From NCBI GenBank assembly GCA_048886185.1, contig JBHLKY010000021.1:1-12922 (forward strand): a stretch of DNA of 12,922 nt, given 5' to 3'. Positions 5,357 through 10,469 of this stretch are shown in pieces (position 1 is the first letter of the stretch; each line of letters opens with the position of its first letter). Source of the DNA: Candidatus Hermodarchaeota archaeon. GTDB lineage: Archaea; Asgardarchaeota; Heimdallarchaeia; Hodarchaeales; Hodarchaeaceae. The notes under the pieces were generated by a model that was not told the origin of the DNA, ran no database searches, and saw only the letters and a program-made list of their open reading frames with translations. The position numbers and the translations under genes are program-made.

Positions 5357-5695
5357 TTAGATAATCATTACATGGAAACCCGCTTTAATCCATGATTCCA
5401 AAGTGGGATGGCCAGATAAACTTCCATCAATAGGTAATTCCTGTCGCTGTGCAGCTTCTAGTGCACCCGTTGCCTTGGCACAAACTTCACAGACTGCAGC
5501 TACTAATTTTTCTTTCTTAAGTTTCTCAAATTTTTCGTATCTTTTATTTTCATATTCACTAATTAGTGTACATGCCTCACTTTCAAAAACAACACCAATT
5601 TCATAACCTTTTTGAGCTAAATCAAACACATTCAAGAGGATATGGGTGAAAACTCCTTTATTGTTATTGAAAAGCACAAAAAGTTGTTTTTTCAT
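5357..5695 (-). CDS. DsrE/DsrF-like family protein
   Basis: 112 aa with VVFESEA, AAVCEVCAKATG (CxxC) and GHPTLESWIKAGFHVMII C-terminus typical of small DsrE-like proteins. SD-like AGGTG lies about 8 nt upstream of the ATG. Confidence 0.75.
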   Translation of the reverse strand: MKKQLFVLFNNNKGVFTHILLNVFDLAQKGYEIGVVFESEACTLISEYENKRYEKFEKLKKEKLVAAVCEVCAKATGALEAAQRQELPIDGSLSGHPTLESWIKAGFHVMII

Positions 5696-5734: not shown

Positions 5735-5751
5735 TAAGAATATTTAAATAT
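5735..5751. promoter_or_regulatory. Palindromic TATA-box-like element between divergent DsrE-like and RuBisCO-like genes
   Basis: ATATTTAAATAT (5740-5751) is a perfect palindrome containing TTTAAATA on both strands. It is preceded on + by purine-rich AAGAA (BRE-like) and lies about 30 bp from ATG 5781 and about 45 bp from ATG 5695. Confidence 0.5.
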
Positions 5752-5780
5752 CCTTGATAAAAAAAGTTGAGGCTTAAGAA

Positions 5781-7139
5781 ATGGTAAAAAGATTGAAAGT
5801 GGATAGTTACGCTGATTTGAAATGGGGATATTACCCCGAGGGAGTACAAGAATCTATTAATTCAGATGATTATGTGATTGGAATCTATTATGCTGCATTC
5901 AGTAGTACTCTTGACCCTTGGTATATGGGAAAAGTAGTTATTCAAGAACAGACAGTTGGTTCTTACTATCCAGTACATAGTGACCCCCGTGAGATCCTTC
6001 GAAGGTTCTCAGGTAAGGTTATCGGGGTTTATGAAATACCCCCTTATGAAATAGGTATTCCAAACGAAGTAAAAGAACGCCAATATATTATTCAAGTTGC
6101 TTATCCCCTTGAAGGATTAGATACGCAATTTCCTCTACTTTTAACTACCCTGATGGGAAATATAAGTATGGGAGGTAAAATAAAACTTCTAGATGTTATC
6201 TTCCCTCAAACCTTTTTATCTGAATTCATAGGACCAAAGTTTGGAATAGAGGGGATTCGAAAACAATTGACTATTCCAGAGCGACCTTTTTTAACAAATA
6301 TAGATCATGCTTATACCTTAGAAGATGGAAAATCTCTCTTCTATGAAGCAGCTATGGGTGGGGCTGATGTTATTAAAGATGATGAAAGTACAGCTGGTGA
6401 TATAAAATACTTGCCATTAGAAGATCGTGTAACAGCTTACATGGAGATGCGAGATAAAGCTAGGGAAGAAACAGGAGAAGATACTATCTATATGGTAAAT
6501 ATAACAACAGGTCCTCAAAAAATAATGGAGAATGCCCAAAAGGCGATCGATTGCGGTACTAATGGACTTATGGTTAATTATCTCACTGTAGGTCTACCTG
6601 TTGTACGTGAATTAGCTGCAGATGAGAGTGTTAAAGTCCCAATCTTGGGACATATGGATTTCGCTGGAGTATATTATGAATCTTCCATGTCTGGTATATC
6701 ATCTTTTCTGATTATGGGGAAGCTTGCCCGATTGGCTGGTCTCGATGCATTAGTATATCCTAGTGCATATAGTAAAGCACCCTTTATTCGTGATAAATAT
6801 CTTGCGTGTGCAAAAGCACTTCGTTATCCCTTTGGCCATTTGAAACCAGTTCTACCAATGCCATCTGGAGGAGTCACTCCTGGTATCGCATTACGTATCA
6901 TGAAAGACCTGGGTAAGGATATTATGATTGGTGCGGGTGTTGGTATTCACTCTCATCCCAAAGGGACTCGTGCAGGAGCCAAAGCTTTTCGTCAAGTAAT
7001 TGATATAGGTATGATACACCTTGATGAAGCAGCTGAAGATCTTGAAGATTATTTAGATGACCATGAAGGAGATTATATCGAATTGCAGCAGGCCTTAGAA
7101 TCATGGGGGAAAGCTGGTATTAAATACCTCGATACTTAG
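5781..7139 (+). CDS. RuBisCO-like protein (form IV RLP), divergent active site
   Basis: GGADVIKDDE carbamylation motif (K codon 6375), EQTVGS (E60 equivalent), LMGNISMGG (N123), FIGPKFGIEGIR, ILGHMDFAG (H294; R295 replaced), YSKAPF (K334), PMPSGG and HSHPKGTRAGA. The lack of R295 and the KPKxG motif excludes a bona fide carboxylase. Confidence 0.9.
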   Translation: MVKRLKVDSYADLKWGYYPEGVQESINSDDYVIGIYYAAFSSTLDPWYMGKVVIQEQTVGSYYPVHSDPREILRRFSGKVIGVYEIPPYEIGIPNEVKERQYIIQVAYPLEGLDTQFPLLLTTLMGNISMGGKIKLLDVIFPQTFLSEFIGPKFGIEGIRKQLTIPERPFLTNIDHAYTLEDGKSLFYEAAMGGADVIKDDESTAGDIKYLPLEDRVTAYMEMRDKAREETGEDTIYMVNITTGPQKIMENAQKAIDCGTNGLMVNYLTVGLPVVRELAADESVKVPILGHMDFAGVYYESSMSGISSFLIMGKLARLAGLDALVYPSAYSKAPFIRDKYLACAKALRYPFGHLKPVLPMPSGGVTPGIALRIMKDLGKDIMIGAGVGIHSHPKGTRAGAKAFRQVIDIGMIHLDEAAEDLEDYLDDHEGDYIELQQALESWGKAGIKYLDT

Positions 7140-7160
7140 ATCAGTAAATGACTTATTATT

Positions 7161-8384
7161 TTATGATCCAAATTTAGTTGTCTGTCCAGCAAGACCGAAC
7201 ATAATAGGAAGAACTTCCAGTCCCATAAGATGACCCAGTCCTCCTTTCATTACAGGGCGTTCACCAAACTCAGAAACATGATCAGAACGAACTCCTTCAC
7301 CTACCATTAAAATGGGTAGTGGATCAGAGGAATGATCCCTCAATATACAAGGTGTACTATGATCTCCAGTGATACATATAAGAGTTTCCGGTAGTAATTC
7401 CAGAAGTGGTTCGATTGCAATATCTATTTCATCAATGAATTCCATTTTTTGAATTGGTTTGTTATCATGGCCCATATTATCTGTTCCTTTTACATGCAAA
7501 AAAGCGAATTGAGCTCTTTCCAGAGATTTCATGACAGCACTGATTTTGGATGGAAGATCAGTTGGGACACCTCCCGTTCCTTTGTGTTCATTGTTTATTC
7601 TCATGCCACAAATTGAGGCCACGCCTTTGTATAACCCTCCTCCCGCTACGCATTCAGCAGTTAACCCGTATTTTGTCTGAAATCTTTCTAAGTGAGGAGC
7701 TTTTCCAGCACCTCTTACTAATAAGTAATTGGCTGGTAGCTTATTCTTCTCAATTCTTTCTTTATTAACCTCTAGCCCCTCCATAATATCAGCTGCTGTT
7801 CTAATGAACTGGTTTAGTACCCGAGCTGTCTTTTCACCTTCAGAGCTTGTAGCTATAATAGGTGTTGGTTCTTTATTTTCAATTTTTGGATCATTAGCGG
7901 TCACAGTACTTGTTAATCCAGGGCCCCTTAACACAAGCGCTGCACGATGATCTACCCCAACCTTGAAAATTACTTCTACATCTTCAATTAGAATATTTTG
8001 TAGAGCTGATTCAATTTGTTGGGTTCCCTCGGAAATTCTGCCAGCTCGTCGATCAATAATTTTCCCTTCTTTAATTGTAGCCATATTTGTTCGGAATGCG
8101 ATATCACCTGGTTTTACAGGTAGATCTGTACCAGCAGCCTCGAATGGGCCTCTTCCTGTATAAACCTCAAAAGGATTATACCCAAAAAGGGCTAGGTGAG
8201 CAGTGTCACTCCCTGGAGTGACCCCTCGTCCAATTGTATGTAATTGACCAGTTATTCCCATTTGTGCCATTTTATCCATTGTAGGTGTTTTAGCAGCTTC
8301 TAGTGGTGTTCGATTATTCAATTCTGGAATTGGACGATCACCAACACCATCCATTAAGAATAAAAGGAGTTTTCTGTTCTGCAT
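7161..8384 (-). CDS. apgM: 2,3-bisphosphoglycerate-independent phosphoglycerate mutase, archaeal type
   Basis: LMDGVGDRP, TPLEAAKTPTMD, TPGSDTAHLALFGY (catalytic Ser), YTGRGPFEAAG, HVKGTDNMGHD, TGDHSTP and HSSDPLP. ATG at 8384; the ORF-track start at 8393 is a GTG. Confidence 0.93.
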   Translation of the reverse strand: MQNRKLLLFLMDGVGDRPIPELNNRTPLEAAKTPTMDKMAQMGITGQLHTIGRGVTPGSDTAHLALFGYNPFEVYTGRGPFEAAGTDLPVKPGDIAFRTNMATIKEGKIIDRRAGRISEGTQQIESALQNILIEDVEVIFKVGVDHRAALVLRGPGLTSTVTANDPKIENKEPTPIIATSSEGEKTARVLNQFIRTAADIMEGLEVNKERIEKNKLPANYLLVRGAGKAPHLERFQTKYGLTAECVAGGGLYKGVASICGMRINNEHKGTGGVPTDLPSKISAVMKSLERAQFAFLHVKGTDNMGHDNKPIQKMEFIDEIDIAIEPLLELLPETLICITGDHSTPCILRDHSSDPLPILMVGEGVRSDHVSEFGERPVMKGGLGHLMGLEVLPIMFGLAGQTTKFGS

Positions 8385-8445: not shown

Positions 8446-9573
8446 TTAAACCAATCTGTGAAACTTTTCTGAAAAAGTAGTGAGATGCCTTAATCTTTCT
8501 TGAATTACCCGAACACCGATTCCATGACCTTTAGGGATTTCAATAAAACCATCATTTCCTATTGTTACTGAGGGTTCTACAATATCTTCTTTAAAATACC
8601 GAGAGGTTTCTGATGTGTCTCCAGGGAGGGTAAAACCTGGAAGAGTTTGTAAATGAAGATTAAATGCTCTTCCTATTCCAGTTTCTAACATACCCCCAGA
8701 CCAAACTTCTATTCCATTCGAATTGCAGTAATTATGTATTGATTTTGAGTTTAATATTCCCCCAACTCTTCCTTGTTTAATATTTATGATATGACAACTT
8801 TTTAGATTGATAGCAGCTTTAGCATCGTTAAGATTCTCGATGGATTCATCTAGGCAGATAGGTGTCTTTATTTCTCTCTGTAATAGTGAATGAAAGTAAA
8901 TATCATCATATTCAAGCGGCTGTTCAATCATCATTAAATTAAAATCATCAAATTGCTTCAACAAACAGAGATCTTGAATAGAATAATCACCATTGGCATC
9001 TACCATAAGATCAATATCAGGGAACTCACAACGAATTATTTTAAGAGGATTAATTTCATTTCCTTTCTTAATTTTGATCTTGATCCTGTGATAGTTCTTC
9101 TTCAAAGCCATCTCAATTGATTGCAGGAGTTTATCAGAATCCTGTTTTATTCCGATGCTTATCCCTGACATGATTTTCTTTGCTTCTCCACCAATGATTT
9201 TGTACAATGGCAAGTTTTGTTTTTTGGCTATAAGATCCATTAGAGCGTTTTCGACTGTAGCTTTTGCCATATTGTTTCCTCTAATTTTCCTGAATTTTTT
9301 TACAACCTCCTCTGGTGTAAAATTTTCCATTTTCATAATAATTGGTAATAAAAATGTTCGAATTATATGAAGGGCACTTTCATTGGTTTCACTACTATAA
9401 TACGGCTCAGGGGATGCCACACATTCTCCCCAACCTTCTATTCCCTCGGAATTCAACTTTAAAAGAAGAGCCTCCTTAAATGATTCTACTCCTAAGCTTG
9501 TTTCAAAAGGTTCTACAAGAGGGAGTTTAATAATAAACAATTCTACTGAATCAATATGATTGATGTAAACCAT
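8446..9573 (-). CDS. menC: N-succinylamino acid racemase / o-succinylbenzoate synthase (NSAR/OSBS subfamily, enolase superfamily)
   Basis: PFETSLG 20s loop, GWGECVA, GISIGI, RIKIKIK (KxK catalytic Lys), MVDAN, IEQPL and LDESI metal ligands, INIKQGRVGG second Lys, WSGGMLETGIGRA and LPGDTS. Confidence 0.9.
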   Translation of the reverse strand: MVYINHIDSVELFIIKLPLVEPFETSLGVESFKEALLLKLNSEGIEGWGECVASPEPYYSSETNESALHIIRTFLLPIIMKMENFTPEEVVKKFRKIRGNNMAKATVENALMDLIAKKQNLPLYKIIGGEAKKIMSGISIGIKQDSDKLLQSIEMALKKNYHRIKIKIKKGNEINPLKIIRCEFPDIDLMVDANGDYSIQDLCLLKQFDDFNLMMIEQPLEYDDIYFHSLLQREIKTPICLDESIENLNDAKAAINLKSCHIINIKQGRVGGILNSKSIHNYCNSNGIEVWSGGMLETGIGRAFNLHLQTLPGFTLPGDTSETSRYFKEDIVEPSVTIGNDGFIEIPKGHGIGVRVIQERLRHLTTFSEKFHRLV

Positions 9574-9574
9574 C

Positions 9575-10342
9575 TTAACACGCCTTTTTCAATTTATAAA
9601 AAATTCTCGACTGATCCTCTGAAAATATTAGTTCTTCAACAACAAATCCCCTTTTAAAAGCTGATTTAAACATTTCCCGGGTTTTTATTCTCCAATGATA
9701 AGCTTGGTTTAAATCCTCCCTCTTTAAGGACTGAATATCTTTAGGGATTTCGATATAGGTTATTTTATGTTTGATATTCCCTATCATCTCTTCTGGAACA
9801 TTTTTTATAAGCTTTGGGATCTTTTTATCTATCCGCTGAATTACACGCTCGGATTTCAGATTCCATGTGGCAATTAATCTGTCAGTAGGTAGACCTTTGT
9901 GGAGTCCCTCTCCCCCCTCTCCATAAATATTGCTTTCATATCCCTTACTTATTATTCCTAATCTATGAATGTTGAAAAAAGCATTTAGTGATTCTAGGGG
10001 GTCGAAAAACCACCTAATGACATTGTACCCCATTTTTAGAACCTCTTCTCTTTGGGCTTTTTTTAATAAAAAACCGAATCCACGTCCTTGAAATTCTTTC
10101 ATAACTGCTGTCATATAGGAAAAGAAGAAATATTCTTCTTTATGTTTTCCAATGATGCCATATGTGAAGCCTACACATTCGTTATCGAAGAAAAAACCTT
10201 GAAGCAGACCACCATACTTTTGGGAACTTATCATTAAGAAATGAGGATCTATCTCCAGATCATTAACGCCCCATGCGCTTCTCTGAATCTCAAAGGTTTT
10301 TTTAAATTCATCTATTGTTTCAAGTCTTCGAATCTTTATCAT
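9575..10342 (-). CDS. GNAT-family N-acyltransferase (NSAR-associated; putative succinyl-CoA:D-amino-acid N-succinyltransferase)
   Basis: AVMKEFQGRGFGFLLKKAQRE acyl-CoA-binding motif A, IRWFFDPLESLNAFFNIHRLG and GLPTDRLIATWNL. The stop codon is 1 nt from the NSAR ATG. The likely start is ATG 10342 (MIKIRRLET); the ORF track starts at 10378. Confidence 0.82.
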   Translation of the reverse strand: MIKIRRLETIDEFKKTFEIQRSAWGVNDLEIDPHFLMISSQKYGGLLQGFFFDNECVGFTYGIIGKHKEEYFFFSYMTAVMKEFQGRGFGFLLKKAQREEVLKMGYNVIRWFFDPLESLNAFFNIHRLGIISKGYESNIYGEGGEGLHKGLPTDRLIATWNLKSERVIQRIDKKIPKLIKNVPEEMIGNIKHKITYIEIPKDIQSLKREDLNQAYHWRIKTREMFKSAFKRGFVVEELIFSEDQSRIFYKLKKAC

Positions 10343-10469
10343 AATTTTTCTCCAGCAAAAATCAATAAGTGAAGACATTCTTCAAAAGAAGGTTTATCAG
10401 AATGAAATTGATTAGAAATTTACCTTGAGTTTTTGAAGATATTTATTCCCCCTTAATAATATCCTAAAG

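Follow-up and report, generated by a model that had tools for sequence, protein, structure and literature searches.

A RuBisCO-like protein subclade with histidine at the position of Lys175 in one genus of Asgard archaea

The window (the whole stretch of DNA analysed, 12,922 nucleotides of contig JBHLKY010000021.1 of a Candidatus Hermodarchaeota archaeon) contains a gene for a RuBisCO-like protein (RLP), the target of this work, which stands as a lone plus-strand gene amid minus-strand neighbours. These are a divergent gene for a DsrE-like protein, a convergent apgM gene, a GNAT-like gene together with a gene of the OSBS/NSAR family, and an acyl-CoA ligase gene. The features in and around the RLP gene are as follows:

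5357-5695, minus strand: gene for a DsrE/DsrF-like protein of 112 amino acids (Pfam score of 20.6 bits, just under the cut-off), separated from the RLP gene by an 85-bp spacer
5741-5748, plus strand: TATA-like box TATTTAAA, a putative promoter element kept in seven orthologous loci
5769-5772, plus strand: GAGG, a putative ribosome-binding motif before the ATG, kept in seven orthologous loci
5781-7139, plus strand: RLP gene of the 'His176' subclade, a form IV member of 452 amino acids (P0001), with matches to Pfam families and solved structures
8446-10378, minus strand: enolase-superfamily gene of the OSBS/NSAR family (TIGR01928, 358 bits against a cut-off of 200), then a tightly spaced gene of 267 amino acids

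The intergenic DNA around the TATA-like box and the GAGG motif has diverged across the same seven loci. The 267-amino-acid gene product matches no Pfam or NCBIfam profile and was called GNAT-like in the first-pass annotation; the pair that it forms with the OSBS/NSAR-family gene is kept in five close relatives.

The target ORF scores 107.8 bits with PF00016 (RuBisCO_large, cut-off 30.1) and 22.0 bits with PF02788 (RuBisCO_large_N, cut-off 20.7). The solved proteins closest to it in HMMER searches are the MtnW-type RLPs 3fk4, 2oek, 4nas and 2zvi (E values of 1e-67 to 1e-61), the RLPs of C. tepidum (1ykw) and R. palustris (RLP2, 2qyg) being weaker matches than MtnW. When its AlphaFold2 model (pLDDT 93.5) was submitted to Foldseek, the top match was 2oem (TM 0.81/0.90), the MtnW proteins of G. 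kaustophilus and B. subtilis were nearest, and all top matches were RLP or RuBisCO chains. The protein belongs to the RuBisCO large-subunit superfamily, with an N-terminal alpha/beta domain and a TIM-barrel fold. A search of the ESM Atlas with the target returned nothing beyond generic clusters named MtnW.

The genome contains three members of this superfamily, the two besides the target being:

L001:1078-2382, plus strand: form III RuBisCO, which passes TIGR03326 (542 against a cut-off of 497)
L002:1057-2394, plus strand: RLP paralog bearing Lys175, 52% identical to the target

All three were aligned and compared at the 22 canonical active-site positions of RuBisCO listed in PMC9570433. The form III RuBisCO keeps 20 of them, with Val at the positions of T173 and F402 and the others identical, the Lys175 paralog keeps 15 and the target 11. 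Its 11 differing sites (K175H, deletion of the K177 position, R295M, H298A, H327V, L335A, F402A, G404V, T65S, W66Y and T173I) and a TIGR03326 score of 203.8 (cut-off 497) set the target apart from the bona fide RuBP carboxylases of forms I to III. R295, H298 and H327, which presumably make up the P2 phosphate site of RuBisCO, are absent from both the target and the Lys175 paralog; the two RLPs differ at exactly five canonical sites, namely K175, the K177 position, T65, W66 and G404. The target is thus a form IV protein, that is a member of the superfamily without the residues essential for RuBP carboxylation, and the first-pass annotation as a form IV RLP agrees with both the Pfam matches and the missing RuBP residues.

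Within the target gene the following active-site elements were assigned by alignment, the second from residue spacing and DSSP (RuBisCO equivalents in parentheses):

5946-5966, plus strand: E56...S61-Y62 (E60, T65 and W66), the part of the active site contributed by the N-terminal domain
6282-6386, plus strand: R168-PFLTNIDHAYTLEDGKSLFYEAAMGGADVI-K199-D-D-E202, comprising strand beta1, a shortened beta1-alpha1 loop, helix alpha1 and strand beta2 with the carbamylatable Lys and the Mg ligands
6303-6308, plus strand: gat cat, the codons of D175-H176, with H176 at the Lys175 position
6375-6386, plus strand: K199-D200-D201-E202 (KCX201, D202, D203 and E204), K and E being invariant
6651-6653, plus strand: H291 (H294), invariant in all 150 aligned sequences
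6774-6776, plus strand: K332 (K334 of loop 6), found without exception in subclade, paralogs and sister-family members
6936-6944, plus strand: G386-V387-G388 (G403, G404 and G405)

The distance from R168 to K199 in the ORF at 5781-7139 is exactly the 31 residues that had been noted at first pass, as compared with 33 to 35 in the other relatives sampled. Among the 120 cluster representatives with both anchors it amounts to 34 residues in 99, 33 in 18, 35 in one and 31 in two, and the latter two both belong to the His176 subclade, to which this spacing is confined. No lysine lies between R168 and K184 of the target. The residue aligned with RbcL Lys175 is His176, both in HMMER alignments with the solved MtnW structures 2oek and 3fk4 and in a MAFFT alignment with the form III RuBisCO of the same genome; the three-residue gap is placed by MAFFT at P176-K177-x, directly after the Lys175 position, and by HMMER three residues further on. 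Since neither alignment leaves a lysine at the position of 175 or 177, Lys175 has been replaced and not deleted. The original view that K175 and K177 were both lost through the deletion is therefore right in that no lysine is found at either position, but only the K177 side is deleted and K175 has been substituted by an invariant histidine. According to DSSP, strand beta1 of the target model spans residues 170-175 and is joined to helix alpha1 (180-192) by a loop of four residues (176-179), whereas the model predicted by AlphaFold2 for the Lys175 paralog (pLDDT 95.0) has a loop of eight residues (169-176) between the strand at 164-168 and the helix that begins at 177. In the models, the deletion thus shortens the beta1-alpha1 loop.

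Could this arrangement be an assembly error, or the mark of a gene on its way to becoming a pseudogene? All 21 homologs with 66-92% identity have the 31-residue spacing and the histidine as well as the motif N-[IV]-[DN]-H-[AST]-[YF], and records from NCBI, JGI, ENA and Logan yield 22 protein clusters with the same deletion and histidine. The homologs carry the names Heimdallarchaeota, Hodarchaeota/Hodarchaeales or Promethearchaeota. Among 83 species genomes of the class, His176 orthologs are confined to the target's own genus, where about 12 of the 22 species genomes, closed chromosomes included, carry one; the initial worry that the deletion might be unique to this assembly is thereby dispelled. 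The reading frames are intact, and pairwise dN/dS among the orthologs is about 0.02-0.05 (close pairs with unsaturated dS), which is as low as in the Lys175 paralog. Recurrence, intact frames and dN/dS values far below 1 together exclude assembly error and decay for all practical purposes, and we give either of them hardly any credence. Flags for internal stops on RuBisCO matches in another family proved to be due merely to terminal stop codons, the gene itself being intact.

Histidine occupies the column of Lys175 in 22 of 22 subclade members and lysine in all 128 others aligned, i.e. 14 of 14 paralogs of the genus, 85 of 85 sister-family members and 29 of 29 representatives. Of the best 150 cluster representatives (50% identity), 129 have K in this column, four have R, two E, and one each T and G, H being seen in the His176 subclade alone. 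Arginine (four clusters, motif RPxxGVIMRPxxGL) or glutamate takes the place of Lys175 in further uncharacterised clusters of the superfamily (P0182, P0219, P0238, P0239 and P0171, the last with KENE where KDDE is expected), and Lys175 is therefore not absolutely universal. The neighbouring D175, which had been proposed together with H176 as a substitute acid/base, is Asp in 15 and Asn in seven of the 22 subclade members; this alternation makes a role as catalytic acid/base unlikely, and the residue may instead cap the shortened loop or a helix, which leaves H176 as the only candidate of the pair. Nor is there, at the level of sequence, a subclade-specific conserved lysine able to replace Lys175: the complete list of subclade-specific basic positions consists of the invariant R348 and of R/K70, K98, K228, R/K372, K375 and R/K397.

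What remains of the active site is in part strictly kept and in part rebuilt. KDDE, H291 (H294), K332 (K334) and the SGG motif (S362-G-G) are intact in the target, as was seen at the outset, and the residue pattern of a Mg/carbamate centre is preserved with them. K199, E202, H291, K332, N127 (N123) and E56 (E60) are invariant in the subclade, D201 (D203, a Mg ligand) is Asn in three of the 22 members and S362 (S379) is Ala in five. The changes at T65, W66 and G404, which like the D203N exchange had escaped notice at first pass, lie at residues which, together with G403, we take to be contacts of the P1 phosphate in RuBisCO. T65 has become Ser and W66 Tyr or Phe in 22 of 22 members, as opposed to T and W in all 99 sister and paralog sequences, and the position of G404 holds V in 16, S in four and A and T in one each, with Gly elsewhere in 98 of the 99 sister and paralog sequences (Ala in one) and in 25 of the 29 further representatives. 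The D203N and S379A substitutions and the variable G404 could reflect relaxed catalytic constraint. Combined with the loss of a lysine that is otherwise invariant in the alignment, they speak for a pseudoenzyme, i.e. a binding, regulatory or scaffolding protein which has kept the RLP fold and the ligand/metal site without turnover. However, the metal- and substrate-site residues named above as invariant are so together with H176, the replacement is a titratable histidine fixed in every member and not a random residue, and purifying selection on the subclade is as strong as that on the catalytic-looking paralog. We therefore regard a pseudoenzyme as unlikely.

Where did the subclade come from? 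In an IQ-TREE phylogeny of 85 rows (LG+C20, quick search, SH-aLRT support) it is monophyletic (support 100), its stem measuring 0.52 substitutions per site, and it is nested, again with a support of 100, among the Lys175-bearing paralogs of the same genus. The target falls inside a clade of 55 rows (support 99); the MtnW representatives lie outside in a clade of their own. The nesting among paralogs of the same genus identifies the target as the product of a lineage-specific duplication. It has a C-terminal acidic insertion in common with the Lys175 paralog, and the two occur together in at least 10 genomes. The suggestion of a distinct subclade without earlier description is borne out by its monophyly, and no paper describing it was found in the literature searched, which likewise yielded no description of an Asgard or Hodarchaeales RLP and no relevant account of a IV-Aful clade. 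The target might be an isozyme that acts on the same substrate and in the same reaction as its paralog, for example at another pH or under another condition, with His standing in for Lys. The 52% identity, the common insertion and the many active-site residues common to both copies fit such a role, and proton shuttling by histidine is possible in principle. Yet the changes cluster at the active-site contacts (T65S, W66Y/F, G404V) and at the acid/base, the stem branch is long and both copies are retained jointly, all of which makes an isozyme, in our estimate, slightly less probable still than a pseudoenzyme.

The gene neighbourhoods add a further difference between the two copies. The arrangement around the target is kept only among orthologs of at least 88% identity, more distant members having unrelated neighbours, and no conserved operon partner or pathway emerges from the gene context of the His176 copies, a point in favour of a pseudoenzyme. 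The DsrE-like protein was considered as a partner and rejected, as its gene is present in 16 of the 22 genomes of the genus, including some without the RLP, and is located elsewhere in distant RLP-bearing genomes. The parent family, by comparison, is widespread, with members in Asgard archaea, Bathyarchaeia, Thermoplasmata, Chloroflexota, Actinomycetota, Syntrophia and Clostridia, the cultured Eubacterium barkeri and Acetobacterium wieringae among them. In 32 of its 77 loci, across many phyla, the RLP gene is adjoined by an FGGY kinase gene, which as a rule lies immediately upstream and in some cases overlaps it; nearby genes code for a class III aminotransferase in 16 of the 77 loci and for a saccharopine-dehydrogenase-like protein in 11. 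This looks like an uncharacterised pathway of parent RLP, FGGY kinase and aminotransferase/saccharopine-dehydrogenase-like enzymes, and no paper combining a RuBisCO-like protein with FGGY was found in the literature searched. Loci L050 to L125 are those of the sister family, with L066:4421-5974 and 5974-7278 as an example pair. The aminotransferase and saccharopine-dehydrogenase-like neighbours are absent at the target, and no FGGY kinase is found near the His176 copies in 10 genome loci or, as judged from the layout of the ORFs and a search for UbiA/PHP, in two metagenome loci. The copies that have lost the kinase linkage are those with changes at T65, W66 and G404, and the loss also counts against an isozyme of the parent type.

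As to the Lys175 paralog, its own locus (L044:11249-19825, in G000:C4) has no FGGY kinase either; its surroundings comprise genes for an acyl-CoA ligase, an acyltransferase, an aldehyde:ferredoxin oxidoreductase, an SCP2 protein and an Fe-alcohol dehydrogenase. A segmental duplication linking the paralog locus with that of the target was considered, as both have an InhA-like peptidase gene upstream and an AMP-ligase gene downstream, and was dismissed, since identity is only 33% between the ligases and similarity is lacking between the peptidases.

One other gene was followed as a possible functional partner, a DGGGPS-like prenyltransferase of the UbiA family:

L039:3142-4095 (G063), plus strand: DGGGPS-like UbiA-family prenyltransferase, under every NCBIfam cut-off
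L038:11387-12352 (G050), minus strand: DGGGPS-like UbiA-family prenyltransferase, under every NCBIfam cut-off
G000:C22:70736-71674, minus strand: UbiA-family ortholog in the target's genome

In one species the UbiA gene directly follows the His176 RLP gene, in a second a single gene separates the two, and orthologs of at least 56% identity occur in 11 of 12 genomes with a His176 RLP and in one of 10 without (raw concordance 20 of 22). When the link was tested on an RpoB tree, only four independent contrasts resulted, of which three were concordant (p = 0.25), and the DsrE-like control performed equally. The metagenome loci of the His176 RLP contain no UbiA gene. With phylogeny considered the association is not significant, and it is kept here as a lead only; that the His176 RLP works with this prenyltransferase in lipid or isoprenoid-linked metabolism is speculative. 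A polyprenyl-synthase fragment was seen 0.7 kb from the RLP gene in L036.

What, then, might the His176 protein do? The exchange of Lys175 for histidine, the shorter loop and the rebuilt phosphate pocket lead us to suggest that it probably catalyses a reaction without prior description in the RuBisCO family. We envisage that a widespread uncharacterised RLP was duplicated inside one Heimdallarchaeia (Hodarchaeales-type) genus, and that the parent had a core near that of RuBisCO (E60, T65, W66, N123, K175, KCX201, D203, E204, H294, K334, SGG, G403 and G404) without R295, H298 and H327. Along the long stem Lys175 would have changed to His, the three loop residues that follow it (the K177 position among them) would have been lost, and T65S, W66Y/F and G404V/S/A/T would have been acquired, while everything presumably needed for Mg2+ binding via the lysine carbamate and for proton abstraction beside a metal-bound carbonyl would have been kept. 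The enzyme may accordingly enolise or isomerise its substrate in a manner dependent on Mg2+ and carbamate, with His176 assuming the proton-shuttle and enolate-polarising role of Lys175; this substrate would have an anionic tail unlike that of the one which the kinase makes for the parent enzyme. To us this reading, a neofunctionalised Mg2+/carbamate enzyme with His176 as the proton shuttle and a substrate with a different anionic end, has slightly the better chance of being right. Against it stand the missing operon partner, the possible relaxation of constraint at D203, S379 and G404, and the behaviour of R. rubrum RuBisCO, in which substitutions of Lys166 (the equivalent of Lys175), His included, reportedly leave the enzyme nearly inactive. 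Related work by Harpel et al. (2002) is cited in PMC6030380. A bolder extension, which we put forward tentatively and would sooner doubt than assert, is that the subclade represents a new functional class of Mg2+/carbamate enzyme with His for Lys175, whose substrate lacks the kinase-installed phosphate and is perhaps non-phosphorylated or carries another anion, and which arose in the archaeal lineage nearest to eukaryotes.

Few residues of RuBisCO and its relatives are as strongly conserved, or have been studied as closely, as Lys175 (Lys166 in R. rubrum). Strong purifying selection acts on a natural clade that has His in its place and keeps the carbamate/Mg centre, and this clade amounts to a ready-made evolutionary experiment on the role of the residue. 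To our knowledge, every RLP newly assigned so far has brought new chemistry, be it an enolase, a 1,3-isomerase or a decarboxylase/transcarboxylase, and the His176 subclade probably marks a further reaction to be assigned in the superfamily. Moreover, a parent and a daughter RLP lie within one genome, so that the two can be compared cleanly by expression, structure determination and substrate screening.

How does the target compare with the systems already known? It is remote from OiaX, the 3-oxo-isoapionate-4-phosphate decarboxylase, scoring 112.3 bits with NF042437 against a cut-off of 700. The closest characterised relatives are the DK-MTP-1-P enolases MtnW/YkrW of form IV-YkrW, represented by the proteins of Geobacillus kaustophilus (2oek/2oem), Bacillus subtilis (2zvi), B. 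cereus (3fk4) and Alicyclobacillus (4nas). With them the target has in common the KDDE metal/carbamate motif, the H294 equivalent, SGG and the absence of R295, H298 and H327, at Foldseek TM values of 0.8-0.9. It nevertheless misses both MtnW equivalog cut-offs (310.7 against 409 for NF007095 and 262.1 against 513.6 for TIGR03332), which the true members P0142 and P0146 pass with scores of 652-706, and the MtnW clade (support 100) is separate from the one that holds the target. In G. kaustophilus MtnW, in work of 2007 attributed to Imker et al., Lys98 is reportedly the general base and Lys147 the counterpart of K175. The target has Asn (N127) at the N123 position, where MtnW has its catalytic base Lys, and His176 opposite Lys147; conversely it keeps the loop-6 Lys, which is Ser in G. 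kaustophilus MtnW (2oek) in the HMMER alignment. With the form III RuBisCO of its own genome, from which the residue numbering is taken, it shares superfamily and fold. The closest system of all is the one from which it descends. Despite this descent the target lacks every feature that distinguishes the parent family, in which K175, T65, W66, G404 and the 34-residue spacing between R and KCX are kept, the paralog model has an eight-residue beta1-alpha1 loop and an FGGY kinase is the characteristic neighbour; in common with the Lys175 paralog and the parent family it has the fold and the equivalents of E60, N123, KCX201, D203, E204, H294 and K334.
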